From positions 160,001-224,000 of the forward strand of contig JAXCHI010000004.1 in NCBI GenBank assembly GCA_033977065.1: a stretch of DNA of 64,000 nt, written 5' to 3'. Numbering within the stretch: the stretch's first letter is position 1; each line of letters begins with the position of its first letter. The DNA comes from Candidatus Algichlamydia australiensis (GTDB taxonomy: Bacteria > Chlamydiota > Chlamydiia > Chlamydiales > JAJFMI01). Below the pieces are notes generated by a model. That model had not been told where the DNA came from, made no database searches, and worked only from the letters and a program-made list of their open reading frames with translations. Positions 12,141 to 63,113 of the stretch are shown piece after piece. A program made the position numbers and the translations under genes.

Positions 12141-13318
12141 ATGTGAATTTCCTCTCATTATGAAAATGCAGTTTCCCGGAATAACTGTTCGAATTGATAA
12201 AAAGACAACTTTTAAAGAACTACAAGATCGCGTTTTTGCAGAGACTTGGAATGAGTCTCGACGCTTCTGTCCGCATATGCCAAATCATGGTGAGCCGAGC
12301 CAGATTTCTTTTTTTGATTTGAGGAATGAGGTGGAGAATATGGAGAAAATTTGGGAGAGGGAAAAAGAGGGAATTGTAGAGCTTAATGTTCGATTTCGTA
12401 AGTCGATGGATGAGCAGGATAAAAATATTCTTATTTTCGGTGGTTATGGGGCGGATGAGTATTGTGTGGAGCAAACATTTTACATTTTCCAATCCCTATT
12501 TGGATCAAAATATGGGGTAGTTATTGTTGAGGAAAAATATTTTGATGAGGATTTCTGGGAAGAGAAAACGGTGATGATTGTGATGCCAGGAGGCGAAGAT
12601 TGCAAGTATCTTGAAACCTTACAAGGTGAAAGAAATCGTCGGATTCAGAACTTTGTCTTAGGAGGAGGCAAGTACTTAGGTTTTTGTGCAGCAGCTTACT
12701 ATGCAGGAAAGAGTATCATTTATGGTCCAGGTACTCCTGATGAAGTGATTGCAGATCGCCCACTTGCATTTTTTCCTGGCACAGTGACAGGGCCGCATTT
12801 AGCTCCTTATAATGACGAGACGAAAAGCGGTGCAAGAGCGACGGTGATTCGGTTTCATGATATCTCCTTGCCTCTCTATTATCATGGAGGATGCTCATTT
12901 CCTCAGCATCACTCTGTTGAAGTAATCGCCACTTATTCAACAGGGGAAGCGGCGATAGTGCAAGGAAGAGCGGGGGAGGGTAAGTACTTGCTTTCAGGTG
13001 TGCACCCCGAAATTAGATAGCGTCGTCAAAAGCATACAACCATCTTATTTTTCATGTTTGGGCTCCATTTTTGTGCTCAAATGAAGCGGAATTTACAAAT
13101 TCAGCTTCAATTTCCGCACAAAAATAAGCTGCAAACATGAAAAATAATCTGATTATAGCCTTTTGACGACACTATCTAATCCTTACTCTCTTGATGAAAA
13201 GAATTTCCCCAATTTAGAGCCCATTAAAGCTTCGTTGGTGGAAGCGAATAAGGAAAGGTTGACTCTTTTCAAAGAGCTAGTAGGCGGGTTTTTAGAAGAA
13301 GAGGTTACAACAGAGTGA
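12127..13318 (+). pseudogene. Biotin-protein ligase N-terminal-like (BPL_N, class I GATase-like) gene interrupted by a MITE
   Basis: MPGGED, YLGFCAAAYY and SGVHPE motifs. The ORF stops at 13020 inside the element; removing 13016-13178 restores 46 more codons ending at TGA 13318. Confidence 0.8.
13016..13176 (+). mobile_element. 161-bp palindromic MITE-like element, family A, TA duplication
   Basis: Ends GATAGCGTCGTCAAAAG / CTTTTGACGACACTATC, TA on both sides; 4 mismatches to the reverse complement of 34216-34376. Confidence 0.92.
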
Positions 13319-13931
13319 CAGTGCTCATTGGGGTGTTGGGACCGCGATTGCCTTTATACTTGACCATGTGGCCTGTTTCGGTGTCAAACCAGGCGTAGGC
13401 GGTCCAGAAGAGAGCTTTGGGTCCTTGAAGAGTAATTTTTACTTTTTGCGCGCGGTAGGTCTCCTTCCCGGTTTTGATCAGCTCAATATGCTGCTTTTTA
13501 GCGATCATTCTGTTGAGAGAGAGGTCGCTCGGATTAATAATGCAAAATCTAAAGGAGCCTAATCCCGACCTAACAAAAGGGCGCAGGCCAAAATTAAATT
13601 CCTGAATCCAGTTGCAATTGCCGATGTTATACTCTTTCAGGGATTCGTTTTCACCGGAAACACGTTTTACTTTTAAGATTTTCCCCTCTCTGTAACACTC
13701 ATACTGCTCATCTTTATCATGCTTGGATGAGAGGTAGGTAACATGACTCATGATGTAGTCGGGGTCACATACAAGTTTAAAATTGGTTTTAGGGCTTTTC
13801 CCCTCCAATGTCAGTGAGCTCTCTTCTTTTTGTGTGAACCACTCTGTTTTGACACTGATTCCCTTAATCTCCTCATTGTAGGAGAGCTCTGGCAAGCTAG
13901 CACAGAGCAGTGATAAAGCAATTATGTACAT
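13305..13931 (-). CDS. Exported hypothetical beta-rich protein
   Basis: Short signal-like N-terminus; coupled to tdk. Confidence 0.65.
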   Translation of the reverse strand: MYIIALSLLCASLPELSYNEEIKGISVKTEWFTQKEESSLTLEGKSPKTNFKLVCDPDYIMSHVTYLSSKHDKDEQYECYREGKILKVKRVSGENESLKEYNIGNCNWIQEFNFGLRPFVRSGLGSFRFCIINPSDLSLNRMIAKKQHIELIKTGKETYRAQKVKITLQGPKALFWTAYAWFDTETGHMVKYKGNRGPNTPMSTVTLL

Positions 13932-14521
13932 ACTCCCTCTTTCGCAGCCTCTACGGCATTGCGAATCAGTTTTCGATAGCAGGGATAGCAGGCAGGATGA
14001 TATTTTTCCTCTGCACCCAATTCAACAGTGGGGCCCTCAACAACGGGCTTACCATTGACATATTTTAAATTCATAACAGCTTTGCGATTACAGTAAAAGC
14101 ATGTAGATTTAACCTCCTCAATCGAGTCAGAGAGTTCCATCAAGCGTTTTGCTCCAGGAAAGAGGTTTCCTCTAAAGTCAGTGCGCAAGCCGTAACAGAT
14201 TACGGGGACATCTTTGTCGATAGAAAGAATGCGCAATTTTTCAATGATGTCTGGTAAGAGGAACTGCGCTTCATCAACAAGGATGCAGCTAATATCATCT
14301 AAATCAAGCTGTTGGAAATCAGTGTGATCATCAACGAGAAGGTCCGCTTCGGCTTGAAGGCCAGCACGCGATTTAATTATCGGCTTGCCAAAACGCGTAT
14401 CAAGGGCAGGTTTTAGTCGGATTACTCGCTTGCCTTGCTGCTCATAGTTGTGAGCTACTGCAAGCAAGTTTAATGTTTTTGCGCTGCCAACTGCGCCATA
14501 TCGAAAATAGAGTTTAGCCAT
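13922..14521 (-). CDS. tdk: Thymidine kinase
   Basis: MAKLYFRYG..GSAKT, LVDEAQFL, CYGLRTDF, Zn-binding CxxC. Confidence 0.93.
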   Translation of the reverse strand: MAKLYFRYGAVGSAKTLNLLAVAHNYEQQGKRVIRLKPALDTRFGKPIIKSRAGLQAEADLLVDDHTDFQQLDLDDISCILVDEAQFLLPDIIEKLRILSIDKDVPVICYGLRTDFRGNLFPGAKRLMELSDSIEEVKSTCFYCNRKAVMNLKYVNGKPVVEGPTVELGAEEKYHPACYPCYRKLIRNAVEAAKEGVCT

Positions 14522-14522
14522 A

Positions 14523-15440
14523 TTAACCTCCGAAAATCATGTGCCATTGAACTGAACCCAAGATCAATCCACCTACAGAAAGATATTGAGGTAACCATTG
14601 AATTTTTTCTTTGAAAAAATAGATTCCAAAGAGATTACAAATCTCAATCACTGCAATAGAGAAAAGGGGAAATAGAATCGCGTTTTGCCAAGAGAATGCA
14701 GCGCTCACAGCATAGAGCATAAAAAACATGGATGAGCCGTTTGCAATTCCTCCTAAGATACCATAAACAAGTGTCTCTTTGGAAAATTTCATACCCTCTT
14801 TTTTTGTTGTAACAAACTGGAAAAGAGCGGCAGACAAAAAGATAAACGGCATGAGCCAGTTCCCCTTGTGAGGATCAATTGAGAAGGGGAGCATAAAGGA
14901 ACTTCCTCCATTGGTCTCAAGGAGAACCTTCCACTGTGTTCCTGCAGAGAAAATGACATACGAACAGGAGGCAAGTGCGATGAAAAAGATCCAACGCATC
15001 TTATTTTTGCAGCTAATATCGCGCCAAGAGCTCCAAAAAATTCCTGCAATGACAAGAAGAGAGCCCAGACCATTGAACCAGCGATAGGGATGGCCAAGTG
15101 ACGCTCCAAAAAGAAGGGCCATTAAAACAGCCGGCAAGATTGAAGAAGAATTCAATGTTGCAAAACTTAAAGCAGAAGATCCTGATTTCAAAGCTTCGCC
15201 CAAGCCCCACATCATCAGTCCTAGAAGAAGTCCGAGTCCAACTCCTACAAGAGCAACTTTTGGGTCAAAAGCGTAGTTCCCACTTCTTACGGGATTGAGC
15301 AAAATTGCGATCAAGCAGGAGATGAGCAGTTGAGAGAAGACATAAAAACCTGTCGAGCCTTTTGTGTCGACACTTCTTCGCATAAACAGATTCTGCATAG
15401 CGGCAAAGAGCGCCGACATTAAAATTAGATATAGAGCCAT
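14523..15440 (-). CDS. EamA/DMT family transporter
   Basis: About 10 TM helices in two repeats. Confidence 0.7.
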   Translation of the reverse strand: MALYLILMSALFAAMQNLFMRRSVDTKGSTGFYVFSQLLISCLIAILLNPVRSGNYAFDPKVALVGVGLGLLLGLMMWGLGEALKSGSSALSFATLNSSSILPAVLMALLFGASLGHPYRWFNGLGSLLVIAGIFWSSWRDISCKNKMRWIFFIALASCSYVIFSAGTQWKVLLETNGGSSFMLPFSIDPHKGNWLMPFIFLSAALFQFVTTKKEGMKFSKETLVYGILGGIANGSSMFFMLYAVSAAFSWQNAILFPLFSIAVIEICNLFGIYFFKEKIQWLPQYLSVGGLILGSVQWHMIFGG

Positions 15441-15520
15441 ACTATTTACCCTTTTCGGACCACTCTATCCCGATGTAGATTTTGCTTGCAAGCAGTGAAT
15501 GAAATGCTTATGTGTAAATT

Positions 15521-16102
15521 ATGGGAAAAATATTTATGAGGGGGCTCATTGCAATTGCCCCGATCGCAATTACAATTGCTGTTTTAATTTGGCTCTTGGG
15601 TTTTTTAGAAGACTTAGTGAGCGTTCCAATGAAAGATCTGATGGGAGAGTACTACTTTCCAGGTCTTGGCATCCTTGCTGCTCTGATCTTGATCTTCTTT
15701 GTAGGCCTGATTATCAATAACTTTCTTATTCAGAAGATCTATAGCTGGGGAGAAAATTTGATGACACGCATCCCTCTTGTCAAAACTCTCTATGGTGCTG
15801 TCACGGATATGATGAGCTTTTTTAACTCAAAAGATAAGAAAGAGGGAAGAGTTGTTGCTTTGGAGTGGCAAGGCTGTCGCATGTTAGGACTTGTGACTCG
15901 CGAGAACTTTGAAGGGCTTCCTCAAGAAGTGGGAAGCGGGGATGAGGTAGCCGTTTATATCCCTCTGAGCTACCAAATTGGCGGCTTTACGATCATGATG
16001 CCAAAGAGCATGTTGAAACCTGTGCCCATCTCTGTTGAAGAGGGAATGCGGTTTGTTGTAACTGCAGGAGCGCCGGGGAAAAATGCCGTACCAAAAAAAT
16101 AG
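15521..16102 (+). CDS. DUF502 membrane protein
   Basis: RIPLVKTLY, VAVYIPLSYQIGGFT, SVEEGMRFVVTAG. Confidence 0.85.
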   Translation: MGKIFMRGLIAIAPIAITIAVLIWLLGFLEDLVSVPMKDLMGEYYFPGLGILAALILIFFVGLIINNFLIQKIYSWGENLMTRIPLVKTLYGAVTDMMSFFNSKDKKEGRVVALEWQGCRMLGLVTRENFEGLPQEVGSGDEVAVYIPLSYQIGGFTIMMPKSMLKPVPISVEEGMRFVVTAGAPGKNAVPKK

Positions 16103-16283
16103 TGACCTACCCGACTCGGTCCGCCACGTACTTCCTGCTAAGGCACAAGAGATTTATCGCAAAGCCTTCAACAACGCGTGGAAGCAGTATGACGGCGATG
16201 AGGAGCTCACCCATAAAGTTGCCTGGTCTGCGGTGAAAAAGAGCTATCAGAAAAATGCGTTAGGCGCTTGGGTGCAAAAATGA
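16083..16283 (+). CDS. chaB: ChaB family protein
   Basis: MPY...DLPDSVRHVLP..AQEIYRKAFN.AW...HKVAWSAVKKSY. Confidence 0.9.
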   Translation: MPYQKNSDLPDSVRHVLPAKAQEIYRKAFNNAWKQYDGDEELTHKVAWSAVKKSYQKNALGAWVQK

Positions 16284-16955
16284 CGCAATCAAAGAGATCA
16301 GTTTTTGCGGCTGCTCGATTGGAGCAAGGTGTCCACACTCTTCAATGATTTCAAGCTTGGCATCTTTAATTCCATCGCGCAACGCTTCTTGCTCGGAAAG
16401 GGGAAAGAGTTCATCTTGCCTCCCATGAATGATCATTGTCGGGCTAAGAATTTTATCAAGCAAACTTTTTGTAGAATAATCCTTTAAAATTGCCGTTAGT
16501 TGCCTGACATAAACCTCTTCTGGTTGCCGAAATTGACAATACTTGAGCAGCTCCAGAAACTTGGGATCTTCAAGTTTTGGGGGATAGATCATCTTCGGTC
16601 TTTGTGCCAAGACCACATCATTGAGATGGCCCGCTTTGATTGCAGGAATAGCAAGCTCAAGAAGCCTCTTATTCTCTTCTTTCACTCCGGTCCAAGAGCT
16701 AAGCAGGATCAATTTTTCGACGCGCTCAGGCGCCTCTGCTGCAACCTCTTGCGCAACCCATCCGCCCATCGAATGGCCCAGAAGGAAGAATTTTTCCGGA
16801 GCATTTTTTAAAACGAACTCTGCCATCTCATGGCGGTTCTCTTGATCATCCAAAACAAGAATTTGCGGATCAAAAGCTTGCTTTAACTTAGCAATTGGCG
16901 CAGAAAAAAAACTCCCATCGCCCCCAGCCCCTGGAAGAATAATGAGCTTGCTCAT
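16260..16955 (-). CDS. Alpha/beta hydrolase
   Basis: GHSMGG nucleophile elbow, HGRQD, CGHL. Confidence 0.88.
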   Translation of the reverse strand: MSKLIILPGAGGDGSFFSAPIAKLKQAFDPQILVLDDQENRHEMAEFVLKNAPEKFFLLGHSMGGWVAQEVAAEAPERVEKLILLSSWTGVKEENKRLLELAIPAIKAGHLNDVVLAQRPKMIYPPKLEDPKFLELLKYCQFRQPEEVYVRQLTAILKDYSTKSLLDKILSPTMIIHGRQDELFPLSEQEALRDGIKDAKLEIIEECGHLAPIEQPQKLISLIASFLHPSA

Positions 16956-18220
16956 CTTTTTTTGGGATGCGATTTTTTGTAGGGACGATCATCTAAAAAG
17001 AGGGTAAGGACAATTGTTGCAATGAGCATGATAGGCAAGATAGCCAAAGCGATGCGAAAGTCATGAACGGTATAGTCTGGTACGCCTCCTACCATTTTTC
17101 CATTCCAAGTAGAGTCTAGAAGATATCCGATCAAGGGAGCTAAAAACGTCCCACCAGCAGCAACTAAAAAGTTTGTAAAAGCAGCAGCTGTTCCTTTTGC
17201 CTCTTCCGGATTGATCTCAATCGAGATAGGAAATGTGAGAATTTGTGCAGAGGAGAAGATCCCAACAAAGAAAAAAGTTGTGTAGAGCAGCCAGATTGGC
17301 ATTGGTGGAAGATAAATAATAGCAAGAAGAGTAAGAAGCGCTAAGAAAGCGGAAGCGATAATAAACAGACGGCGGTTGTGGATGCGATCGGAAAAGTATC
17401 CCAAGATCGGTCCCCCAAAAAGCCATCCTACAAAGTTCATCGAGACAATTGTGGCAGCTAAAACCTTACTAATCCCATAAGCTTGCACGATGAAAGGAAT
17501 GCCCCAAAGGCCAGCAAAGGCACTCATTGTCGCATAAAAAGTAAGACTCATAATTCCATTGATCCAACTATGTTTGTTGCGAGCAATCAACTTAAAATTA
17601 TCAAACACAGCCTTTAATGAGGTCGCTTTTGGCTCATGATGGCCCGCCTTACTCTCACCACGGACACCTAAGAAAATAATAGCGGTTCCAATCAAGCCGA
17701 TAATGGCAAGGACAAACATCGATTGACGCCACCCAAATTCGTTTACGAGAATACTTAAGAGATCTTCGCCAGCGATTGCTCCAATCATTCCAAAAGAGTT
17801 TCCAAGTCCCACAAGCAGAGCTAAAAGCGCAGGAGCAAACCAGTGGGAACTCACATAGACAATTCCCACAAAGGCAAACGAGGAACCAAGACCAATTAAG
17901 AGTCGTCCTACCCCTGCATAAACTAGATTTGGAGCAAGAGCAAAGAGCAGAGAGCCCAAGCCACAAGTTAAAGCAGCAAAAGAGAGAAGACGCCGTGCAC
18001 CGTAGCGATCCATCAACATCCCAACAGGAATTTGCATAGGGGAGTAGGCGTAAAAATAGATCGCAGTTAAGACCCCAATGGCACCCGCATTTACTTGGAA
18101 AGTAGCCATCAGCTCCTTAACCATTACACTGGGAGAGACACGAAGAAAGTATTCATATAAATAGAAGAATGAAGCGCAAGACCAGACAAAAATGCCCATC
18201 CACGTAAAACGTTTTGCCAT
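16952..18220 (-). CDS. MFS transporter
   Basis: GMLMDRYGARR and GYFSDRIHNRR motif A; 12 TM; start trimmed to MAKRF at 18220. Confidence 0.88.
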   Translation of the reverse strand: MAKRFTWMGIFVWSCASFFYLYEYFLRVSPSVMVKELMATFQVNAGAIGVLTAIYFYAYSPMQIPVGMLMDRYGARRLLSFAALTCGLGSLLFALAPNLVYAGVGRLLIGLGSSFAFVGIVYVSSHWFAPALLALLVGLGNSFGMIGAIAGEDLLSILVNEFGWRQSMFVLAIIGLIGTAIIFLGVRGESKAGHHEPKATSLKAVFDNFKLIARNKHSWINGIMSLTFYATMSAFAGLWGIPFIVQAYGISKVLAATIVSMNFVGWLFGGPILGYFSDRIHNRRLFIIASAFLALLTLLAIIYLPPMPIWLLYTTFFFVGIFSSAQILTFPISIEINPEEAKGTAAAFTNFLVAAGGTFLAPLIGYLLDSTWNGKMVGGVPDYTVHDFRIALAILPIMLIATIVLTLFLDDRPYKKSHPKKR

Positions 18221-18233
18221 AAAAATTCCTTTT

Positions 18234-18394
18234 GGAGACACTGAACAACTCATTATTTCCAATAAGGACCTGAAAATTGGCCAAAATTAATTTTTCAAAC
18301 TCACTAACTCTTAAAGAGTTAGTTCCGTTTTCCAAAATTGATTTTGTCACAATTTTGAGGCCCTTTTTGAAAAGAGTAGTTATTCAGTATCTCC
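18234..18394 (+). mobile_element. 161-bp palindromic MITE-like element, family B
   Basis: Ends GGAGACACTGAACAACT / AGTTATTCAGTATCTCC, TTTT on both sides; collinear with the reverse complement of 19561-19721. Confidence 0.82.
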
Positions 18395-18459
18395 TTTTTC
18401 TCCCTTCTATATCAAAAAATAAATTGAAACAAAAGGCCTTTGTAGCTTTTATAACGGGT

Positions 18460-19560
18460 ATGGGAAGCTGGCCAAATTTACTAAAATTTTTTGTTTCGAA
18501 GATTGGGTTACCTGTAGTTGCAGTCTATCATGTCATTATTAGTAGCGTTTTTTTAAATGTTGCGGCAGTAGATGCGAACTGGCTTGAGCGAGCAGGAAAC
18601 GAACTTCTCGCCCCATCCCAATATCTCTTTGTTGGGAAAGTCGCTCTGCCGCAAACAGATGGCACCTACCTCATCGAGCAACGCTTTAGTTATGACGACC
18701 AGTTTATGCAAAAAAGTGTTGGTGCGGCTATCATCCTCCCCGTCTCATGGGTAGTTGGGGCGTCACTAAAATCTTTAGCCTATCTCGATCCAAAAGCGCG
18801 TGCGCGCCACCATGAAATTGTACACGCCTATCACTACGCAAAAACAAAACACAATCTTGTCCACTATCGCTCCCTTGGAATGAAAGTGGGGAAAAAACCG
18901 AAAAAAGTACAGCTTACAGGTCCGCACTTTCAAAGGCGGCCAGGAGATGAAAAAAATCTCTCTGTAGAAAAGCAGGCCTTAGCACAAATCGCATCGATCT
19001 TAACAGCAGAAGGAATTCCTTTTTGGATAGACCGCGGCACATGCCTTGGCGCAATGCGCTATCAAGGCGTTGTCCCATGGGATTACGATATTGATATTGG
19101 GGTTATTGCAAATGATTTTCAAAATGTCTATTGCGCACTAAAAAAATTAGATCCGAAAAAATACCAAGTGCAAGACTGGTCCTCAAGAAGACAAGACGCG
19201 CCATTTTTAAAAGTCTATGTGAAAGAGTCTGGTGCACTGATCGATATTTTCCACTATAGAATTAATAAAGCGGATAAGACATTGCAAGTCATTGTTGCCA
19301 ATAATGATAGCCTCTTTCTTTCTGACGGCTGGCGCGCTTACGAAGCGCGCTATGAAAAACCGATTCCCTTCTCAACAATTTTCCCCTTAAAAGTGGCAGA
19401 GTTTGATGGGCTTTGGTTGCCCGTACCGCATAAAACTAAAGAGTTTCTCACCACTTTTTATGGTGACATAGACAGGCCAGTGCGCTACTATTCTGAAGAG
19501 ACGGATGCATATGAAAAAGATTTAGAGCATCCCTACTGGCAAGAAGTCAATGTTTATTAA
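18460..19560 (+). CDS. LicD/fukutin family nucleotidyl-diphospho transferase
   Basis: GTCLGAMRYQGVVPWDYDIDIG, LIDIF, IFPLKVAEFDG...P...FL..FYG; start trimmed to ATG 18460. Confidence 0.85.
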   Translation: MGSWPNLLKFFVSKIGLPVVAVYHVIISSVFLNVAAVDANWLERAGNELLAPSQYLFVGKVALPQTDGTYLIEQRFSYDDQFMQKSVGAAIILPVSWVVGASLKSLAYLDPKARARHHEIVHAYHYAKTKHNLVHYRSLGMKVGKKPKKVQLTGPHFQRRPGDEKNLSVEKQALAQIASILTAEGIPFWIDRGTCLGAMRYQGVVPWDYDIDIGVIANDFQNVYCALKKLDPKKYQVQDWSSRRQDAPFLKVYVKESGALIDIFHYRINKADKTLQVIVANNDSLFLSDGWRAYEARYEKPIPFSTIFPLKVAEFDGLWLPVPHKTKEFLTTFYGDIDRPVRYYSEETDAYEKDLEHPYWQEVNVY

Positions 19561-20193
19561 GGAAAGAGTGAACAACTGCTCTTTTCGAGAGGAGTGCAAA
19601 AATTGAGATCAAATTGGTTTTGGAGAACGAAGCTAACTTGTTTAAAGTTAGCGAGTGCGAAAAATCGATTTGGACCAATTTTTGGTCGCCTATCGAAAAG
19701 TCTGAGTTGTTCAGTCTTTCCGAAGAAAGCAGCAATTTTTATCTTTTTTGTTCTTGTGGTCTACGGCATCGGTGCGCTTGGATCCTATATGACCGATCTT
19801 ACGGTAATGAATTGGTACCAGAGCCTTAATCGCCCCGATTGGACGCCACCTGATTGGCTTTTTGGACCCGTCTGGATGCTGCTCTATTTTGTTATCGCAC
19901 TTGTTGGCTTTCTTCTCTGGAAAAATCGCCGCGCCATCGATAGCAATGCGCTCTTTGGTCTCTATTGGGCGGGACTCATTTTCAACGGACTTTGGACCTT
20001 TCTCTTCTTTGCTCTGAAACAACCACTAGCTGCAGCAATTGACATCCTCTTTATCTGGCTTTTTGTCTTACTCTTTATGTGCAAAGCTTGGAGATATAAA
20101 AAAGTATTGACTTGGCTTTTTCTTCCCTACTTTCTTTGGATTACCTACGCTGCAGCAATCAACTGGGCGATTGTCTACTTGAATCCTAAATAA
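19550..20193 (+). CDS. tspO: TspO/MBR family protein whose 5' end is interrupted by a family B element
   Basis: WYQSLNRPDWTPPDWLFGPVW, LWTFLFF, LPYFLWITYAAAIN. ATG 19550 is in frame only if 19561-19721 is removed. Confidence 0.8.
19561..19721 (-). mobile_element. 161-bp palindromic MITE-like element, family B
   Basis: Ends GGAAAGAGTGAACAACT / AGTTGTTCAGTCTTTCC; central GCTAACTTG..AAGTTAGC hairpin. Confidence 0.85.
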
Positions 20194-20234
20194 ACTATCC
20201 AGCATAATTCTTCTCTTACGAAAAAGGAGAAGAG

Positions 20235-20549
20235 ATGTCTTTAGCAGTAGTAAAAGGGAGAATGAGTCAAAGAGAAATTGAACAAGTGAGCCTGATGTGT
20301 GAAGGTGCGTTCCAAACGGTGATAGGCTGTATGTCTCGATTCTCTCTAGGAGTCGATCTACAAGTTCCTTATAAGGAGAAGTTGCAATTCATTGAAAAAG
20401 TCGCACATTTTATAGTGTCGAAAAATCAAGAAGATGAGACTGGAAAAGTTTCCTTAAATTTCAGAATTGGAAACCAAGTTTTAAATTTTAATTTTAATTT
20501 TATAAAAGGTCAATTGCAGCTGAATTCAACGAAAAGACTTGCTCTTTAG
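20235..20549 (+). CDS. Hypothetical protein
   Basis: AAGGAG RBS, 104-aa ORF filling the intergenic space. Confidence 0.6.
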   Translation: MSLAVVKGRMSQREIEQVSLMCEGAFQTVIGCMSRFSLGVDLQVPYKEKLQFIEKVAHFIVSKNQEDETGKVSLNFRIGNQVLNFNFNFIKGQLQLNSTKRLAL

Positions 20550-20589
20550 CTGTTATTAGGGTAAAATAATTTAAACCTTGTGGGAGGAG

Positions 20590-24552: not shown

Positions 24553-24694
24553 GATGAATGAAGATTAAAATAACAGCAACGAAAAAAAAATTGTTTTCTG
24601 TAGAAACATAAGCTCCATAGCCATATCAAAACGCCCCATCGCTGAAGGGATGCCCGACGCCTAAAAAAATGTTGACCTTGTTCTCAAAGGTTGA

Positions 24695-24740
24695 AATATA
24701 CCAACTTTATTGGTTATATAACCAATAAAGTTGGTATATT
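24695..24740. promoter_or_regulatory. Perfect 46-bp palindrome, putative double operator
   Basis: AATATACCAACTTTATTGGTTAT followed by its exact reverse complement, ending at the base before ATG 24741. Confidence 0.8.
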
Positions 24741-26841: not shown

Positions 26842-26887
26842 TTGTCTGATTTTATCACGTCTCCCAAAATTATTTTATTCTAAGATT

Positions 26888-34215: not shown

Positions 34216-34376
34216 GATAGCGTCGTCAAAAGGCTATAATCAGATTATTTTTCATGTTTGTAGCTTATTTTTGTGCGGAAATTGAAGCTGAATTTGTAAA
34301 TTCCGCTTCATTTGAGCACAAAAATGGAGCCCAAACATGAAAAATAAGATGGCTGTATGCTTTTGACAACGCTATC
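34216..34376 (-). mobile_element. 161-bp palindromic MITE-like element, family A, TA duplication
   Basis: Reverse complement of 13016-13176 with 4 mismatches; TA at 34214-15 and 34377-78. Confidence 0.92.
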
Positions 34377-43952: not shown

Positions 43953-44927
43953 GTGAAGAAAGCCATAAGAGTTGCGGTAACAGGAGGAGCAGGACAGATT
44001 AGCTATAGCGCGCTTTTTCGAATTGGAAATGGAGATCTGTTTGGTAAGGATCAACCAGTAGAGCTCTCAATTTTAGAGTTGCCAATTTCTATGGACGCAT
44101 TGAAAGGTGTTGTGATGGAGCTTGAAGATTGCGCCTTTCCGCTGCTGAAAGAAATTCATATAAGCTCTGAGCCAAAAGAGGCGTTTGCTGATGCAGATGT
44201 TGTCCTGTTCATTGGGGCAAAGCCGCGCGGGCCCGGGCAGGAGCGCAAAGATCTTTTAGCTGAAAATGGCAAAATTTTTGTGGGCCAGGGTAAGGCGCTA
44301 AATGAGGTAGCAAAACGCGATGCGAAAATGCTTGTGGTGGGAAATCCTTGCAACACCAATGCTCTTGTGTTGATGCATAACGCTCCCAATCTGCCAAGAG
44401 AAAACTTTTTTGCGATGACGCGTCTGGATCAGAATCGCGCGCAGGCACAGCTTGCTGCAAAAGCAGGTGTGGATTCTAATCAAGTCGAAAATCTTGTGAT
44501 TTGGGGCAACCATTCAGCTACGCAGGTACCAGACTTTCTCAATGCAAAAATTTCTGGTAAACCGGTTCTTGATGTGATTACGGATCGCGATTGGCTAGAA
44601 GGCGAGTTTTTTACTACGGTGCAGCAGCGTGGAGCCGCTATCATTAAAGCACGCGGCAAATCTTCAGCGGCCAGCGCAGCCAGTGCAGCAGTTGATACGG
44701 TAAATTCTATTTTTAGCCATGAACTCTACTCTGCAGGTGTAATTTCTGATGGCAATCCTTACGGCATAGCAGATGGTCTTATTTTTTCTCTTCCACTCCT
44801 TGCCAAATCGGGAAGTTGGGAGATTGTAAAAGGGTTTACTCACGATGATTTCCTTGAAAAAAAGATCAAAGAGACAGAAAAGGAACTCATGGAGGAGCGC
44901 GATATGGTTGCGAGCTTATTACGATGA
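43953..44927 (+). CDS. mdh: Malate dehydrogenase
   Basis: [41 protein letters not shown]. Confidence 0.95.
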
Positions 44928-46147
44928 GTGATGTTTTATTTGAGATAAAAGAGGAAAATCTTGAGACGGGTTTGCGTGGCATTCCTGTTGGTTATTGCAT
45001 CACATCACGTGTTGATGCGGAAAAAGGGCTTTTCTATCGCGATAAAGCGGTAACAGAGTGTGTACAGATGCAGCCCGAAGAGGTACTCTCTTACCTTTAT
45101 GGTAGTGATCTTTCTAAAGAGCTTGTTTCGCGTGGCGTGTGTGATCAAGCTGTAATCGATCATATTGAAAAATTGCCTGGAAAAGTAGCACCCATGAAAC
45201 TCTTCTCTACGGCCATTTTGCTCCTTGGCATGTTTGAGAGTAAACAAGATTATCGCGAAGACGCGCTCAATCTCATCGCTAAAATTCCTCATCTAGCTGC
45301 AGCAGTCATCAATTACCACGCAGGCTGGGGCAAAACGCCTCCTTCAAATCCTGAGCTTGGTTACATGCAAAATTTTACTCATCTGCTGAATGTTCCCGAT
45401 TCTGATAAGAAAATTTTAGGCGAAGTTCTTACCCTCTTCAACATTTTACATTACGATCACGGTGGTGGTAACCTCTCTGCATTTGTGGGTAAGGCCGTTG
45501 CTTCAGGTCTTACCGATCTCTATGGCTCTATCGCCTCAAGTATGTGTGCTTTAGCCGGACCGCGGCACGGGTGCGCCAATCAAGTGGCTCTTGAATTTGT
45601 ACAAAGCGTTCTTGATGAAGCGGGAACAGAAGCAACAGAAAAAGATTTAGAAAATCTGCTGCGCAAACGCCTTGCAGAAAAAAAACTTGTTTTTGGATTT
45701 GGCCACGCTGTTTTGCGCGTTGAGGACCCGCGCGCTGCTATCATGTATGATTACTCGGCAAAAAATTTCCCCGATCATCCACTCGTGCGTACCGCACTTT
45801 TGCTTCGCAAAGCAGGTCCTACAGTCTTAAAAGAGAACCCTAAAATTCAAAATCCCTATCCCAATCTCGATGCCATTAGTGGCTCGATGCTCTCAGGCGC
45901 TGGCTTCCCTTATCCTGAGTATTACACCATTCTGTTTGGAGTTGCGCGCGCTTGCGGCATCGCGATGCAAATTGTCTACGAGCGCCTCGAGGCGCGCGAT
46001 GGCAAGGGGACTCCCATTGTCCGCTCCCAAATACCTCTACAGGAACCACTGAACAATTCATGCACCGATATCTCGGCCGAAAAATTCTATAAAATTTTAT
46101 TTTCGATCTCCATCAACTTTCCAAAGTTGATTCCGATCTCCAAATAA
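44924..46147 (+). CDS. gltA: Citrate synthase; C-terminus altered by a 1-nt frameshift and element insertion
   Basis: [33 protein letters not shown]; expected PKYLY lies in another frame. Confidence 0.88.
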
Positions 46148-46202
46148 CGTTTTTTAGAATTTTCGGTTCGACCTATCGGTACAGCAATTATTCAGTGGCT
46201 CC
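46042..46202 (+). mobile_element. 161-bp palindromic MITE-like element, divergent family B, TACA duplication
   Basis: Ends GGAACCACTGAACAATT / AATTATTCAGTGGCTCC; TACA at 46038-41 and 46203-06. Confidence 0.88.
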
Positions 46203-46321
46203 TACAAAAAATAAAAACTTTATTTTTTCATAGTAATTTCTTATAATTTCCGTAGATTGGGGTGAAAACTATCCCTGTATTCGAAATTAAGCAATACACA
46301 CTTAGTTGCTTGTGTATTTTA

Positions 46322-46911: not shown

Positions 46912-46931
46912 TCAAATAGAATGAAAAATTT

Positions 46932-50599: not shown

Positions 50600-50627
50600 T
50601 AACTAAGTTAATTTTTTAAAATTTACA

Positions 50628-50752
50628 AAACTCGGGTTACTACCCAATTTCTCCTATGGAGAGAGTATTTTATAAATATTTCTGAAATTTGAAACTAAAC
50701 AGATTACGAAAAGGCTCCTTCTAGAGGGGGAAGGGGGCTGCAATTCGAGTTT
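50628..50752. mobile_element. About 125-bp family D element
   Basis: Ends AAACTCGGGTTAC / GCAATTCGAGTTT; shares TCTAGAGGGGGAAG with 53346-53461. Confidence 0.7.
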
Positions 50753-50764
50753 ACAAAATCGCAA

Positions 50765-52951
50765 TTAAAAGATTGCTCCCTTAGGAGGGAGGATTCGGCT
50801 TCTGATGAAATTAGCTGCCTCTTCATTTGCCTCTTCATTCTGTAAATTTTCAATTTCGCGATCAATCGAGCTCCGTTCTCCTTGGCTAATTAGCTTGTCT
50901 ATTAACAAACGCACACAATCATCATCGCCTGCTTTGGCAGCTACCGAAAGTAGTGAATGTTTTGCTAGTTGAATATCTTCTTGTTCCAAAAAGAATTTTA
51001 CAATTTCTCTTGTTTCTTCTATTTTTTCATTTTCAGGATTAGTGACGTTTTGTATCGCGCAATGAAGAGGTGTGTTGTACGCTTTATCAAGAGCATTAAT
51101 ATTTGCTTTAAAATCTTCTACAAGGGAAGTTACCATTTTTAAATTATTTTGCATTACAGCAATATGCAAAACAGTAAAGTAGTTCTTAGGCTCTCTTGTA
51201 TTAATATTAAAATATCGACTAACTGACTCTAAAATCTTTGATTGTGGGTATGCTATTTTATGTACTACTGCCATATGTAGAGGAGTTACGTGAGGAAATA
51301 ATAGATCCTGGGATTTATCAAGCAGCATCTTGGCTATCTCAATATTCCCGTGTCTAGTTGCAAGTGCTGCAAGCGAAATCTCACCTTCCAATAAAATATC
51401 AGCGGTAGCTCCCTTTTCCAATAAAAAATTTACAGTCTCGTTATTACTAGAACATACTGCACAATACAGAGGAGTGCAGTAGTCATTTGTTTTTGCCTCA
51501 ATATTTGCCCCTGCCCCATGCAAAGCCTTAACAACTTTTGTGCTACTATACATCACTGCAAGATGAAGAGGAGTGTAGCCGCCATTTGTTTTTGCCTCAA
51601 TATTTGCACCTACACGAAGAAAAGCCTTAACAATTTCTAAGCAATTATATCGTGCTGCAAAATGAAGAGGAGTGTAGCCGTCATCTGTTTTTGCCTCAAT
51701 ATTTGCCCCTGCCCCATGCAAAGCCTTAACAATTTCTAAGCAATTATATCGTGCTGCAAAATGAAGAGGAGTCGAATTATCGTCTGTAAGTGCATTAATA
51801 TTTGCCCTTGCCTCAAGCAAAGCCTTAACAGCTTCTGTGCGATCATATTCCGCTGCAAGATGAAGAGGAGTTAAATTATCGTCTTCAACTGCATTAATAT
51901 TTGCCCCTGCCTCAAGCAAAGCCTTAACAGCTTTTGTGCAACCATTTTGTGCTGCAAGATGAAGAGGAGTCTTATCTTTATTTGTTTTTGCCTCAATATT
52001 TGCATTTGCACTAAGAAAAGCTTCAACAATTTCTAGGTGATTATTTCGTGCTGCAAGATGAAGAGGAGTCTTACCTTTATTTGTTTTTGCCTCAATATTT
52101 GCACTTGCACTAAAAAAAGCTTCAACAGTTTCTAGGTGATTATTTCGTGCCGCAAGATGAAGAGGAGTTAAATTATCGTCTTCAACTGCATTAATATCTG
52201 CCCCTGCCTGAAGCAAAAACCTGCTAGTTTGTGTGAGACCATAGTCCGCTGCAAGATGAAGAGGAGTCGAGTTTTCGTCTGTAACTGCATTAATATCTGC
52301 CCCTTTCTTAAGCAAAGCCTTAATAATTTCTATGTGATCATATTGCACTGCAATATGAAGAGAAGTCCAACGATTATTTTTAGTTGCATTAGGATCTGCT
52401 TTTGCGTCAAGCAAAGCCTTAACAATTTCTAAGCAATTATATCGTGCTGCAATATGAAGAGGAGTCAAATCATTGTCTGTAACTTCATTAATATCTTTCT
52501 CTCTACGAAGATAAAAATTTACAGCTTCTAAATGGTTTAATTTTATAGCCATAAAAATTGGGTGAACTTTAGGCTTTTCCTTGTTTTCAAAGTAATTAGA
52601 TAGTTTTTCACACACTCTAACCCAAAAGTCTAAGTCACCAGTTATCGATTCTTTATTTTTAATGAGCCAGTCGATGTCCCCTTTGTCTGCATAATCTAAC
52701 ACTGTTTTATTTGAATTTATCTCAGCTTCTGATTGAGAAGCTTCTGTTAGACGTTGACGTTTTTTGGGTATTTGGGAAGAGGTGGGATTTTCTTCATCTG
52801 CAAGCCTTTTCCCAGTGTGAGTAACTCTGTCTTTTAAAGTCGGTGGAGTATTGCCATTTGACACGTTTGGTAAAATAGGCAAAGTATTTGGTTTGCTGGT
52901 ATGGCTAGTAGGTTCTTCTTGATGTTTAGGGCCTGCTTGAATTGATTGCAT
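50765..52951 (-). CDS. Ankyrin-repeat protein, putative effector
   Basis: Many TPLHLAA...VKALL.AGANINA repeats; disordered N-terminus containing PKKRQRL. Confidence 0.92.
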   Translation of the reverse strand: MQSIQAGPKHQEEPTSHTSKPNTLPILPNVSNGNTPPTLKDRVTHTGKRLADEENPTSSQIPKKRQRLTEASQSEAEINSNKTVLDYADKGDIDWLIKNKESITGDLDFWVRVCEKLSNYFENKEKPKVHPIFMAIKLNHLEAVNFYLRREKDINEVTDNDLTPLHIAARYNCLEIVKALLDAKADPNATKNNRWTSLHIAVQYDHIEIIKALLKKGADINAVTDENSTPLHLAADYGLTQTSRFLLQAGADINAVEDDNLTPLHLAARNNHLETVEAFFSASANIEAKTNKGKTPLHLAARNNHLEIVEAFLSANANIEAKTNKDKTPLHLAAQNGCTKAVKALLEAGANINAVEDDNLTPLHLAAEYDRTEAVKALLEARANINALTDDNSTPLHFAARYNCLEIVKALHGAGANIEAKTDDGYTPLHFAARYNCLEIVKAFLRVGANIEAKTNGGYTPLHLAVMYSSTKVVKALHGAGANIEAKTNDYCTPLYCAVCSSNNETVNFLLEKGATADILLEGEISLAALATRHGNIEIAKMLLDKSQDLLFPHVTPLHMAVVHKIAYPQSKILESVSRYFNINTREPKNYFTVLHIAVMQNNLKMVTSLVEDFKANINALDKAYNTPLHCAIQNVTNPENEKIEETREIVKFFLEQEDIQLAKHSLLSVAAKAGDDDCVRLLIDKLISQGERSSIDREIENLQNEEANEEAANFIRSRILPPKGAIF
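51470..52480 (-). repeat. Tandem 99-bp ankyrin-coding repeats
   Basis: GCAAGATGAAGAGGAGT and TTTTGCCTCAATATTTGC recur at 99-bp spacing; boundaries approximate. Confidence 0.85.
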
Positions 52952-53028
52952 AATAATATTTTTTGTTTATTCATTAATAATAAGGGATTTTGATCTATTT
53001 TTCAATAAAAATCCCTTGTTTTATAAGA

Positions 53029-53153
53029 AGATATCTTCAAATTAATTTTTGTTGAGCTTTTGAACTCAATTTAAGCGAGTAATATCAATCTACGGATATA
53101 ATTCGCTTAAAATGAACCGAAACATCGACTGAATTTTAATTTGAAGACAACCT
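53029..53153. repeat. About 125-bp imperfect palindromic element (family E)
   Basis: TCTTCAAATTAA/TTAATTTGAAGA outer arms; TTTAAGCGA/TCGCTTAAA inner arms. Confidence 0.72.
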
Positions 53154-53230
53154 ACTCAAGTTGCTACCCCCTTTCCCCCTCTGGAGAGATCCTTTTTGCG
53201 ACCTGTTTCGTTTAAAATTTCTGTAGATTT
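53154..53230. repeat. Partial family D element abutting family E
   Basis: ACTCAAGTTGCTACCCCCTTTCCCCCTCTGGA matches the reverse complement of the right arm of 50628-50752. Confidence 0.68.
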
Positions 53231-53345
53231 TTAAATTTTTTTTATTTAGATAAAAATTTAGTGATTACACAAAGCGAATAAATATAAAGTACAGTGCTTG
53301 GAGTCGCCTTGAATATAAAATATTTTTAAGTGGTTTTTTTCTTAA

Positions 53346-53461
53346 AAACTCAAGTTGCTGACCAGTCTCCTCTATAGTAAGAGGGATTTTTGATGAGGTG
53401 TTTCGTTTTAAATTGCAGGTTGCGAAAAGGGTCTGTCTAGAGGGGGAAGCAACGTGAGTTT
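53346..53461. mobile_element. About 116-bp family D element overlapping the marC stop
   Basis: Ends AAACTCAAGTTGC / GCAACGTGAGTTT. Confidence 0.72.
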
Positions 53462-54047: not shown

Positions 54048-54104
54048 AAGTACTTCTTATGTTACTCAATTTCGTTATAATTGGAAAGTTGATACACTAT
54101 ATGG

Positions 54105-56298: not shown

Positions 56299-56381
56299 CT
56301 AATAATTAGCCATTTGTATTATTAGTATAATTAAATTAATATATTGTTATAATTAAATTAAGAATAAATATAGGTTTAATT

Positions 56382-56684
56382 ATGACAAAGGTTTCTGAAA
56401 CAGCACAAAAAACAACTATAGCAGCACAAGAGAGTAAAAGTATAAGCTCGCTTACCAAGCTAGTAAAGTCTCTTCTTAACAAACTTTCTGAATTGTTTTT
56501 CTCGAAAAAGCCCGTAGATTTAAAAGAAAAAGAGGTTGTGCAAATAGATCCTCTCACCAGAAAAGAAGGAATGGAGAAATTCGCAAAACTTGTTGCTGCA
56601 AAACCAGTAAGCTCTTCCGATGCTCAGAAAAAAATTGCAGCCAGTTTTAGGTTTATGAGAAGAGTAGATGTGGAAGGTGTCTAA
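56382..56684 (+). CDS. Small hypothetical protein
   Basis: 100-aa ORF after an AT-rich spacer; S/T/K-rich N-terminus. Confidence 0.55.
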   Translation: MTKVSETAQKTTIAAQESKSISSLTKLVKSLLNKLSELFFSKKPVDLKEKEVVQIDPLTRKEGMEKFAKLVAAKPVSSSDAQKKIAASFRFMRRVDVEGV

Positions 56685-56722
56685 CTCTTGAGTATAGTCG
56701 CTCATAGTGTTACTATGGGCGC

Positions 56723-60735
<4,013 letters not shown>

Positions 60736-60773
60736 TTCCTATAATAACTGTTTCTTAACAAGGAGTTTTTCTA

Positions 60774-61361
60774 ATGTGGAGAGCAATTATTAAAGGAAGT
60801 ATCGTAGGCGCGCTTGTTGCCTTTGCGTGGAGTTTTTTTTCTTGGGTAGTTCTGCCCTGGCATGAAAACACAGTACATCAATTTCAAAATGAAGAGTATG
60901 TCTCATGGGCCTTAAAAGAGAATACGAAGAAGCATGGCATCTATGTTTACCCCTCCTGTAGTGAAAAAGAGGGCATGACTAAAGCAGAGAGAAACGCCTC
61001 CTGGAAAGATTACCAAGAAAAAGTAGAAAAAGGGCCTTACGTTTTTGCCTCTGTTGTCCCAAAGGGATTTAAGTTTAATATGCTTTTGAGCCAATTACAA
61101 ATGATTGTTGCGCTGCTAATAGCAGCTGGTATCATAAGCTTTTTGCTGCTCAAGTCACAATTTACGACTTATTTTGGAAAAGTTTTTTTTGTTACACTTA
61201 TCGCTCTAGTAGCGGGAATTTTAGTCGATTCGATTAATTGGATCTGGTGGCAATTTCCGACACACTTCACAGCAGTAAACATGATTGATCAAGTGATCAC
61301 TTGGTTTATTGCAGGTTTAGCAATGGCCCCTGTTGTGAAGATCAAACACCAACGGGGATAA
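60774..61361 (+). CDS. Hypothetical membrane protein
   Basis: AAGGAG RBS; SWVVLPWH, GIYVYP; four TM segments. Confidence 0.75.
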   Translation: MWRAIIKGSIVGALVAFAWSFFSWVVLPWHENTVHQFQNEEYVSWALKENTKKHGIYVYPSCSEKEGMTKAERNASWKDYQEKVEKGPYVFASVVPKGFKFNMLLSQLQMIVALLIAAGIISFLLLKSQFTTYFGKVFFVTLIALVAGILVDSINWIWWQFPTHFTAVNMIDQVITWFIAGLAMAPVVKIKHQRG

Positions 61362-62673
61362 TTTCCCCAATAAGAGTTTGGTGGTTATGACTGTGAAGCT
61401 TAACATTTTGCAGTGTGCCTACCAGACTCTTATCCCCTTCAAAAATCACATTTTTCCAGCAGCGCGTACGCCCTTTTAATCGTCCATCTTTTTTGTTGAT
61501 CGATTCAACAAGTACCTCTACGGTATCACCAATCATGTGAGCTCTCTCTTCTGATGCAAAACCGTTGTAAAGGTCCATTAAGCGATGGAGGCGCTCCTGT
61601 TTTACCTCTTCTGGAACATTGTCTTTCCAGCGCATAGCAGGTGTGCCTTTGCGCGGGCTAAAGGCGTAGAGAAAGGCAACAGAGTAACGAAGTTCTTTAA
61701 AAGCGTCATACGTCTCTTCAAACTCCTCATCTGTTTCGGTTGGAAAGCCGACAATGATGTCAGTGCCGAGAGAGACGTTAGGAACGATCTCGCGTAACAT
61801 CGCCACTTTTTCAAAATACTGCTCCTTGGTATAGATACGGTGCATCTTTTTTAAGATGCGCGAAGAGCCAGCTTGAATAGGAAAATGGACAAATTCACAG
61901 AGTGATGGCAGATCGCGAATTGCCTCCATCAGCTCTTTAGTGATATCGATAGGATGGCTTGTCATAAATCGTATGCGCTCTATGCCATCAATTTTATCCA
62001 ATCGGTGGAGTAGATCGTGAAAGAGGCAGTTCCACTCCAGCTGATCTTTTCCATAACTATTTACATTTTGGCCAAGAAGAGTGATTTCCTTGTAGCCAGC
62101 GTCTGCAAGTCGCTTAACCTCTTCTTCAATACTTTCGGGAGGGCGGGAGACCTCTTTTCCTCTTGTGTAAGGGACAACACAGTAAGTACAAAATTTATCA
62201 CAACCGCGAATGATAGAGACATAAGCTTTTACTTTGTCATCGCGTTCCGCAACAAGATAATCTAAATTTTCTTCAAAACGATCATCTGTTTTGAAGCTTT
62301 TTTTGCCCTCAATCACTTCGTCTAGAACAAGATTTAAGTCGGTAATGTTATTGGTACCGAGAACAAAGTCAACATTGGGAAGTTTGCGAAATAACGTCTC
62401 CTTTTTGGCCATTGCCATGCATCCCGTAACACCTATGATAGGACGATGTGTCTTGCTGCGGCCTAAAATTCCAATTTTACCCATCGCCTTACGCTCTGCT
62501 AAATCGCGTATTGAACAAGTATTAAAAATAATTAGATCAGCCGAATCTTCCGTTAAGGCACGAGCAAGACCGCGGCGTTTGAGTTGGCCATGCATGATCT
62601 CAGAGTCGAGTTCATTCATTTGGCAACCGTAGGTTTTTATAAAATAACTTTTTGGATCTCGTAAGGTGCTCAT
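61342..62673 (-). CDS. miaB: tRNA i6A37 methylthiotransferase
   Basis: TYGCQMN, NTCSIR, GCDKFCTYCVVP, TSHP, TRAM domain. Confidence 0.95.
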   Translation of the reverse strand: MSTLRDPKSYFIKTYGCQMNELDSEIMHGQLKRRGLARALTEDSADLIIFNTCSIRDLAERKAMGKIGILGRSKTHRPIIGVTGCMAMAKKETLFRKLPNVDFVLGTNNITDLNLVLDEVIEGKKSFKTDDRFEENLDYLVAERDDKVKAYVSIIRGCDKFCTYCVVPYTRGKEVSRPPESIEEEVKRLADAGYKEITLLGQNVNSYGKDQLEWNCLFHDLLHRLDKIDGIERIRFMTSHPIDITKELMEAIRDLPSLCEFVHFPIQAGSSRILKKMHRIYTKEQYFEKVAMLREIVPNVSLGTDIIVGFPTETDEEFEETYDAFKELRYSVAFLYAFSPRKGTPAMRWKDNVPEEVKQERLHRLMDLYNGFASEERAHMIGDTVEVLVESINKKDGRLKGRTRCWKNVIFEGDKSLVGTLQNVKLHSHNHQTLIGEIIPVGV

Positions 62674-62747
62674 AGTGTATGATATTACTCGATTACCCTT
62701 CCAAAATCAATAACCCTTAGCAAGAAGAAAATTGATAGAGTTTAAAC

Positions 62748-63113
62748 AAAAAAATGATAGCCGCGCGAGGTCTTAAGCGAAGCTCATCCGAAGCGCTCGA
62801 TGGCTTCAGGTCGGCAGTGAAAAATCGCGGAGCAAGAGGAAGGAGCAGTGCTGTGCACGGCCTTAAGTACTCCAAGCCAAAAGTTTTCAGCTTAAAACGG
62901 CGTCAAAGCCACGCGATTGAACTATCGAAATGGACCTAGTATTTTGAATACGAGGTCGATTTCGATAACCCAATCGCGAGAGCTTTCACGTCGTTTAAAG
63001 TTTAAAAACTTTTGGCTTGGAGTACTGAGATGAAACGCGATTTGGCATGGCGAGATGAAGCTCAAGGGGAGCGGGGGCGCAGCCCCGACTGATCTACTTG
63101 GCTATTATTTTTT
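62748..63113. mobile_element. GC-rich inverted-repeat-bounded element hosting a nested 161-bp element
   Basis: AAAAAATGATAGCC / GGCTATTATTTTTT ends; internal GGGGCGCAGCCCC hairpin. Confidence 0.55.
62866..63026. mobile_element. 161-bp palindromic element, family C
   Basis: Perfect 22-bp ends AGTACTCCAAGCCAAAAGTTTT / AAAACTTTTGGCTTGGAGTACT; pairing continues to the centre. Confidence 0.85.

Follow-up and report, generated by a model that had tools for sequence, protein, structure and literature searches.

Hairpin-forming miniature inverted-repeat transposable elements of several end-types share a length near 161 bp in Candidatus Algichlamydia australiensis

Systematic analysis was done of six palindromic elements, each 161 bp in length, that lie in a 64,000-nucleotide stretch of the Candidatus Algichlamydia australiensis genome (the window, G000:C4:160001-224000; genome G000 comprises 1,799,045 bp in 7 contigs and is 93.4% complete). 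The elements are non-autonomous DNA transposons, namely MITEs (miniature inverted-repeat transposable elements), that fold along their whole length, as is evident from their terminal inverted repeats (TIRs), the TA duplications of family A and 4-bp duplications of family B, their many copies and the empty sites corresponding to two of them. A mode of about 161 bp recurs in at least five end-types of the genome; it is a property of a whole class of chlamydial hairpin MITEs, and a coincidence among three families is ruled out. The explanation favoured here, to which we assign a probability of roughly 0.55, is that the elements are MITEs of an old chassis of about 160 bp, the ends of which have been replaced and the fold of which is under selection.

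Three families are represented in the window. Family A comprises A1 (13016..13176, plus strand, with TA at 13014-13015 and 13177-13178) and A2 (34216..34376, minus strand, with TA on both sides), which is inverted relative to A1 and 97.5% identical to it. Family B comprises B1 (18234..18394, minus strand), located in the spacer between the MFS transporter and LicD genes, B2 (19561..19721, plus strand), located in the LicD/TspO spacer and belonging with B1 to the B1/B2 subfamily, and B3 (46042..46202, plus strand) of the B3 subfamily, which is flanked by a TACA duplication at 46038-46041 and 46203-46206. Family C has one copy, C1 (62866..63026, plus strand), measured between its AGTACT borders. 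An earlier note on this DNA, made from the letters alone, had placed the six elements here at 161 bp each and had found A, B and C impossible to align with one another; the positions and the lengths of all six were reproduced, and neither blastn nor nhmmer returned a cross match between the three families. All six copies, and likewise every family studied, bear inverted ends. Of 106 full copies, 92 lie between crude ORFs, although such ORFs take up 88.6% of the genome, which fits elements of the MITE kind.

A self-complementary blastn scan of the genome returned 211 foldbacks, of which 118 of at least 90 bp remained after merging. The earlier note had proposed that lengths be plotted genome-wide, and the plot gives a narrow mode: 79 of the 118 have a raw length of 158-169 bp, a measure that takes in palindromic flanks such as TA, while 21 are shorter and 18 longer. 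Two further end-types fall into this band, namely cl2 (15 copies, all of 160 bp, with 2-bp duplications and a paired-end distance of 160 in 15/15) and cl3 (10 copies of 160-161 bp with a duplication of about 5 bp, the paired ends lying 161-162 apart in 5 of the 8 pairs under 5 kb). Further foldback pairs and singletons measure 151-166 bp. A distinct hairpin family, cl4, has 14-15 copies of 98-101 bp (for example contig C4:65229-65329), and its 3' flank is conserved and CTAGGCCGCTTC-like.

In family B, length is kept while the sequence changes. Among the 19 full copies of the B1/B2 type, 12 measure 161 bp, five 162, one 160 and one 135; among the 14 of the B3 type, ten measure 161 bp and the others 132, 162, 163 and 184, so that 22 of the 33 full copies are of exactly 161 bp. 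Distances between paired ends agree with these figures (161 in 8/11 pairs of the B1/B2 type and in 5/6 of the B3 type). Copies within the subfamilies are 70-87% identical and the two consensus sequences 63%, and since the nhmmer profiles of the two types match each other over the full length, B constitutes one superfamily. The statement of the earlier note that B copies are diverged yet constant in length therefore stands, 161 bp being kept at 63-87% identity.

The borders of family B are fixed by duplications and by an empty site. Direct repeats of 4 bp flank many copies (TTAA, TTAC, TACT, TACA, CTAA, TTTA); B1 lies inside a T-run with TTTT on both sides, and B2, with TTAA to its left and GAAG to its right, has no visible duplication. 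G001, a sister species in the same genus with DNA about 72% identical, has neither B1 in its MFS/LicD spacer nor B2 in its LicD/TspO spacer, and the empty site of B2 fixes its borders, with exactly 161 extra bases in the window. B-like copies are present elsewhere in G001, which, together with the absence of B1 and B2 there, indicates that the family has been mobile since the species split. The comparison of empty sites in related genomes suggested by the earlier note was thus fruitful for these two copies; the sites of A1, A2, B3 and C1 are too diverged or fragmented in G001 and G002. An empty-site form was not seen in two DNA contig runs, in which repeats collapse and which may themselves be the source of the assembly.

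Family A was detected by blastn at 58 loci of G000, of which 33 are full length at 97.5-100% identity (31 measure 161 bp, the other two 160 and 162 bp), and the distance between paired A ends is 161 in 31/33. TA stands on the left of 33/33 and on the right of 32/33, mostly in a YTAR context; because TA occurs on both flanks, the 161 bp exclude the TA duplication. A 118-bp variant of A also exists. An insertion sequence (IS) bearing the A end was identified on contig C2 at about 415011-415816 (locus L003, minus strand). It begins with TA and the A end, agrees with A at 13-14 of the first 14 nt, and carries, 68 nt after the A end, an open reading frame (ORF) with DUF4096 (E 4.7e-20) followed by an ORF with DDE_Tnp_1 (E 1.4e-17). 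This is the sole DUF4096-type IS5-family element in G000, and since a cl2 MITE has cut away its 3' part, the element that probably mobilised A is no longer functional here.

The right end of A is also the 17-nt end of a multi-copy IS in metagenome-assembled genomes (MAGs) of Alphaproteobacteria, where it likewise follows TA and the first ORF is again DUF4096 (E 7.9e-25). Its occurrence in unrelated Alphaproteobacteria MAGs hints that the IS lineage with A's end has moved between phyla. A public-genome scan for the 17-nt end returned at least 87 stretches, mostly single chance matches in unrelated phyla; the meaningful matches were confined to the Alphaproteobacteria MAGs and a Simkania MAG, and A's interior was present in none of the stretches. 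At loci L054-L133 (MAGs WFFMC_MAG_370, _684 and _371), the IS with A's 17-nt end and TA flanks breaks many contigs. Two other candidates were rejected: an IS630/Tc1-type partner, as PF13358 (DDE_3) has no match in G000 and the A ends are of the IS5 family, and a 2099-bp stretch of contig C7 bounded by A-like ends, which encloses ordinary genes and the left end of which is a chance match. Family A is hence a recently amplified MITE of the ordinary kind, belonging to an IS5-family element, and its constant length within G000 needs no special explanation. An IS903-like element of 1108 bp (G000:C3:388891-389998, locus L002), with ends GGCCTTGTTGCGTAAATAGC, a 9-bp duplication and DDE_Tnp_1 ORFs interrupted by stops, is inserted in an A copy; a second copy on contig C2 emerged from the DDE search (match 398093-398494).

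The search for transposases with matching TIRs, also proposed in the earlier note, was thus successful for A alone, as G000 yielded no partner for B or C. No IS with B ends was found in the genome, and the end scan gave no long pair of ends for B or for C. The unit B1-LicD-B2 was rejected as a composite transposon or IS, its enclosed ORF being a LicD-family gene and not a transposase, and a plasmid IS (DUF772 + DDE) was rejected as the partner of B, with about 11/15 end bases agreeing by eye and a different duplication.

Family C is the weakest of the three with regard to length. C1 is the sole copy of its subtype in G000, and its core (positions 36-126) has 82-84% identity to 16 copies of a sister family, termed C-like, of which 14 full copies, invariably set within CTAG, are 165 bp long from one AGTACT border to the other. 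Taking CTAG as a 4-bp duplication brings the C-like length to 161 bp, and taking TA as the duplication brings it to 163 bp; a target duplication was not seen at C1 in the window. The figure of 161 bp given for family C in the earlier note consequently holds by the AGTACT borders of C1 and fails for the sister family, which has 165 bp by the same borders, and it depends on the choice of border. In G001, 12 matches to C1 were found, one over 161/161 bp and most ungapped over positions 13-149 with other ends. An element of 405-407 bp with 11 copies (for example contig C4:389864-390270 and C4:453493-453897) has C-like ends too and often abuts C-like copies with one CTAG in common. The spacer that holds C1 (window 62675-63160) is 479 nt long here versus 23 nt at the orthologous G001 site and is packed with pieces of several repeat families; C1 appears to separate two halves of a cl4-type 98-101-bp hairpin (window 62793-62863 and 63036-63114).

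Folded as single-stranded DNA, A1, B3 and C1 each give a single end-to-centre rod interrupted by small bubbles, the DNA free energies being -46.1, -34.5 and -60.2 kcal/mol and the z-scores -11.2, -8.4 and -16.5, respectively; 0/200 dinucleotide shuffles folded as well as A1, B3 or C1. The end-to-centre pairing with small bubbles described in the earlier note is hence well founded for the six elements, the energies being those of A1, B3 and C1.

Compensatory change in family B, which had been suspected by eye and for which a covariation test had been proposed, is supported by several measures. Over 18 B copies and 55 predicted pairs, a standard pair was found in 93.3% of cells versus 87.3 +/- 0.5 in shuffles. 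Changes on both sides affect 23/55 pairs versus 12.5 +/- 2.0 in shuffles (0/500 reach 23) and 5-12 in slid controls, and the number of cells changed on both sides is 70 versus 24.5 in shuffles. The left arm of a B copy is Watson-Crick paired with its own right arm at 0.849, versus 0.760 with the right arms of other copies, and in 14/18 copies no other right arm pairs better than the copy's own. Relative to the consensus, B1/B2-type copies have 34 double compensatory states, with mismatches of 37 G-T, 25 A-C and 64 transversion type; by rough reasoning, such a number of double states would far exceed independent decay. In the B-type cores of ten genomes, a purine-rich unpaired stretch flanking the apical hairpin is conserved (TTTGGAGA... 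and ...GAGnTCGAAAA), and the small helix between the purine-rich stretches covaries, GAAC/GTTC versus GATC/GATC.

The length rule extends to some other genomes of the order. In a Simkania MAG (G031, 400 kb), all 5/5 foldbacks of at least 90 bp measure 160-166 bp and have five different ends. In G009 (320 kb), 4/15 foldbacks lie in the 158-169 bp band (actual lengths 160-165) with four different ends, the others spanning 97-458 bp; in G019 (400 kb) it is 1/10, with a range of 94-308 bp, and G029 (200 kb) has foldbacks of 96 and 165 bp. The samples from G007 (200 kb) and G003 (18 kb), each with zero foldbacks of at least 90 bp, and from G002 (118 kb), with a single foldback of 172 bp, carry little information. 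The rule holds strongly in two Simkaniaceae-type genomes and partially in one other family, and it is not universal.

In favour of a chassis, interiors are common across genomes while ends differ. Foldbacks of G013 and G009 and a singleton (k11) have the interior of B, k16 and a G009 element (N4) that of cl2, a Simkania element (S5) that of k8a and another (S3) that of cl3. A covariance model built from 18 B copies, with at most 19 candidates scored per genome, gave full-model matches in 17/151 genomes of the order (G000 included) and 14/111 genera. Length modes of these matches were 161 bp in G067 (10/12) and G142 (8/13), 160 bp in G013 (14/19) and G145 (9/15), and 159 bp in G099. Among the best matches, at least four end types surround a single conserved core, and the B core is kept across at least 10 families of the order. 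Judged from these same interiors with different ends elsewhere, part of the common length of about 161 bp is probably inherited, which the earlier note had not considered.

Orientation provides a further line of evidence. Relative to the strand defined by GC skew, elements are distributed 14:4 (B1/B2 type), 8:4 (B3), 12:2 (C-like), 10:3 (cl2), 10:1 (cl3) and, most strongly, 12:1 (cl4). Crude genes are distributed 575:528, and gene direction therefore cannot account for the bias. With neighbours collapsed and A left out, the orientation is 43:22 (p 0.013), copies within one genome being not fully independent. No bias was found relative to transcripts that read into the elements (46:39, p 0.52). 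That orientation follows the GC-skew strand indicates that insertion or survival of the elements depends on the replication fork.

Each family consensus folds better on one strand, by 8-17 kcal/mol with RNA parameters; with DNA parameters the difference is clear in B, cl2, cl3 and cl4, small in A and absent in C-like. Where the asymmetry is clear, the better-folding strand is the sequence of the C-rich strand, which by standard fork geometry would be the leading-strand template, the parental strand less exposed as single-stranded DNA. Strand asymmetry was rejected as proof of one functional strand: consensus mismatches sum to 31:6 in favour of one strand, but are within chance per family by hand calculation, and new mismatches are symmetric. 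The hairpin nuclease SbcD (TIGR00619) has no match in G000 (93.4% complete), and its lack could partly explain why many long palindromes are tolerated.

In the mechanism that we propose, transposases made elsewhere would move the hairpin MITEs, and the ancestor of the class would be an old chassis, a hairpin of about 160 bp, the interior and length of which would have been kept while the terminal 15-25 bp were replaced. Such replacement would let the chassis use whichever transposase is present, and selection on the folded single strand, at replication or transposition, would hold length and pairing. Selection on a single-stranded fold is argued for by the compensatory substitutions, by the low number of indels and by orientation, which tracks the replication fork and not the neighbouring genes. 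The shared constraint on length and fold inferred in the earlier note is upheld by the B lengths, the covariation, the at least five end-types here and the five in Simkania at 160-166 bp; the agents it had named, a structure-reading mobiliser, synapsis geometry and a nucleoid-protein footprint, were not told apart. A bolder form, in which an ancient chassis of about 161 nt in the order has the core as its heritable unit, exchanges its ends, meets a fate set by the parental strand at the fork and reflects a molecular ruler, is put forward only tentatively, as the odds run against it.

Several observations weigh against this explanation. Foldback lengths are broad in other genomes, with 1/10 in G019 and 4/15 in G009 within 158-169 bp. 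A, B, C-like, cl2 and cl3 show no cross matches (nhmmer at E up to 1e-3; sensitive blastn), and as the families cannot be aligned, common descent of all classes is not demonstrated. A weak likeness was seen in a centre-anchored ungapped alignment of 36 consensus pairs (mean z 1.84 versus 1.20 in wrong registers, standard deviation 0.80, n 144), which may represent common A-tract positions or very old homology. The length counts from the covariance model are partly circular, since the model favours matches of its own length and no more than 19 candidates per genome enter. No replication bias is seen in A (18:14), for which alone a partner was identified, and the better-folding strand of C-like changes with the energy model. 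New mismatches are strand-symmetric in the six 161-bp families, with G-T:A-C ratios of 10:9, 37:25, 25:23, 7:6, 5:6 and 17:29. Since duplications of different length imply that different transposases were at work, end replacement is a demanding step, and the transposases are not strictly length-limited, as is apparent from the 405-407-bp element with C-like ends, the 118-bp A variant and the 98-101-bp cl4 family.

In the chief rival explanation, short curved double-stranded DNA has converged on a geometric optimum for synapsis, such that about 161 bp with phased A-tracts, or with a host bending or wrapping protein at the centre, would best synapse the ends and palindromy would be a by-product. 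We regard it as rather unlikely, though several points favour it. In the Simkania genome, a family with TA flanks and the ends of A has an interior unrelated to A and gave 14 whole-query matches, all of 159-162 bp and five exactly 161; the same ends thus enclose two unrelated interiors, both of 161 bp, in two genera. End-types that defy alignment also have one length, and A/T-tract phasing, assessed against a null in which tracts were kept and positions moved, is significant in A (10.25 bp, p<0.001), in C-like (11.5 bp, p<0.001) and in 5/9 elements of G031 and G009. However, phasing is not significant in B (p 0.12-0.14), cl2 (0.34) and cl3 (0.13), so that the A/T-tract phasing reported in the earlier note is sound for A and the C-like family and not for B. 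Compensatory double changes indicate base pairing beyond symmetry, the same ends also bound elements of 118 bp and 405-407 bp, and a replication-strand bias is not expected from a purely double-stranded mechanism. A weak likeness was seen in a centre-anchored ungapped alignment of 36 consensus pairs (mean z 1.84 versus 1.20 in wrong registers, standard deviation 0.80, n 144), which may represent common A-tract positions or very old homology.

Host domestication, in which the hairpins would serve the cell as gene-end RNA hairpins or as sites for gyrase or nucleoid proteins with their mobility in the past, is considered improbable. It would fit the conservation of the B core in at least 10 families of the order, the position of A and B copies close behind stop codons (median 4-21 nt) and the better folding of every family consensus on one strand. 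It is opposed by the absence of an orientation preference relative to transcripts (46:39) and of any Rfam match for the elements in the window (Rfam 15 at the gathering score returned four tRNAs only), and the public runs list no RNA set; on these grounds an RNA-level reading was rejected. Moreover, the near-identical copies of A stem from a recent burst, the sister species has empty B sites, and copy mismatches accumulate symmetrically.

Two explanations have very little probability. A coincidence of three families merely alike in size, with borders drawn by eye, could appeal to C being 161 bp under one border choice only, with a sister family of 165 bp by the same rule, and to published bacterial MITEs that are often 100-170 bp (PMC3184786, Table 1), but 79/118 foldbacks in G000 and 5/5 in the Simkania sample lie in one narrow band and the A and B borders are fixed by duplications, an IS end and an empty site. 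Single-strand transposition by a Y1 (HUH) enzyme that reads the hairpin, as with REPINs or IS200/IS605, would agree with the fold conserved along the whole length and with an orientation bias relative to replication, resembling what has been reported for IS200/IS605 elements, but it is hardly credible, as Y1 (HUH) enzymes do not make TIRs or target duplications and the elements have both, Y1_Tnp (PF01797) has no match in G000 (93.4% complete) and A's ends belong to a DDE element.

Other features of the window concern the same families. A solo family A end of 44 bp (2517..2560, plus strand), with 100% identity to A positions 1-44, adjoins tRNA genes. Two copies of cl3, a family with ends AACTCAAGTTGCTACCCC, are shortened relative to the full 160-161 bp, one to 122 bp (50629..50750, plus strand) and one to 113 bp (53348..53460, minus strand), the latter within a nest of palindromic repeats at 53002-53460. 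A1 supplies the stop codon of ORF 12127-13020, a protein with a biotin-protein ligase N-terminal domain, from element bases 3-5, and B3 contributes the final ~35 codons of ORF 44924-46147, which terminates inside it. A 1052-bp stretch (window 51445-52496) is repeated about five times genome-wide by megablast self-comparison.

The length of a MITE is usually taken as an accident of the origin of each family. Several end-types with different duplications and the same length within 1-2 bp, in more than one genus, imply a ruler, which could lie in the synapsis of short transposons, in the survival of hairpins at replication or in descent from a common chassis. Hairpin MITEs matter for chlamydial genomics, as they provide stop codons, change gene ends and break assemblies, and they mark the recent activity of transposases that have since decayed. 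If true, descent from a chassis would represent a MITE organisation in which the core, and not the ends, is the heritable unit.

In comparison with known systems, the folding itself has precedents. Passages of the Delihas review (PMC3184786) describe MITEs that can fold into long hairpin-like structures, bacterial MITE families that span about 100 to >400 bp and Nezha MITEs of about 130-170 bp; the claim of the earlier note that whole-length folding is unlike ordinary MITEs is not sustained in view of that source. With the IS5-family end of A and with target duplications specific to A and to B, the elements resemble ordinary clients of transposases. Correia elements (CREE/NEMIS) of Neisseria are likewise small and non-coding with TIRs and many intergenic copies, and are given there as about 104-157 bp with a reported IHF site (PMC3184786, in part). 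The present elements differ from them in that several end-types have one length and the interior, not the ends, is conserved between genomes. Rickettsia palindromic elements are known for their in-frame position inside genes; insertion of that kind was rejected here, as 92/106 full copies are intergenic and the 163 bp gained with A and its TA cannot be divided by three. As palindromic repeats of an obligate intracellular bacterium they are nonetheless alike, with about 105-146 bp according to the same portions of the review (PMC3184786).

The ERIC (about 127 bp) and YPAL/RU-2 (about 168 bp) elements of enterobacteria and Yersinia are likewise whole-length imperfect palindromes at gene 3' ends, ERIC-type elements have TA flanks as family A does, and ERIC and YPAL have orientation-dependent effects on mRNA, as sections of PMC3184786 state. 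In the present elements it is the replication strand that orientation follows, and with respect to transcripts it is random (46:39). With IS5-family IS (DUF4096 ORF + DDE ORF) and their MITEs, family A shares such an end and a TA duplication in YTAR-like sites; in distinction to those systems, only a truncated IS remains in G000. To our knowledge, no fixed common length across families has been described for the Stowaway and Tourist MITEs of plants, the hosts of which are eukaryotic. Those elements, formalised as MITEs, are likewise non-autonomous, have TA or short A/T-rich duplications and are moved in trans (PMC3184786, in the portions on plant elements). By term search, the paper on the G000 genome refers to 11 transposases and does not contain the word MITE (PMC11317633), and among titles and abstract openings no paper on MITEs in Chlamydiae was found. 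Overall, MITEs with whole-length hairpins are already known, and what is new is one length common to several end-types, a pattern of conserved cores and variable ends across the order, the partner of family A and a replication-strand bias.

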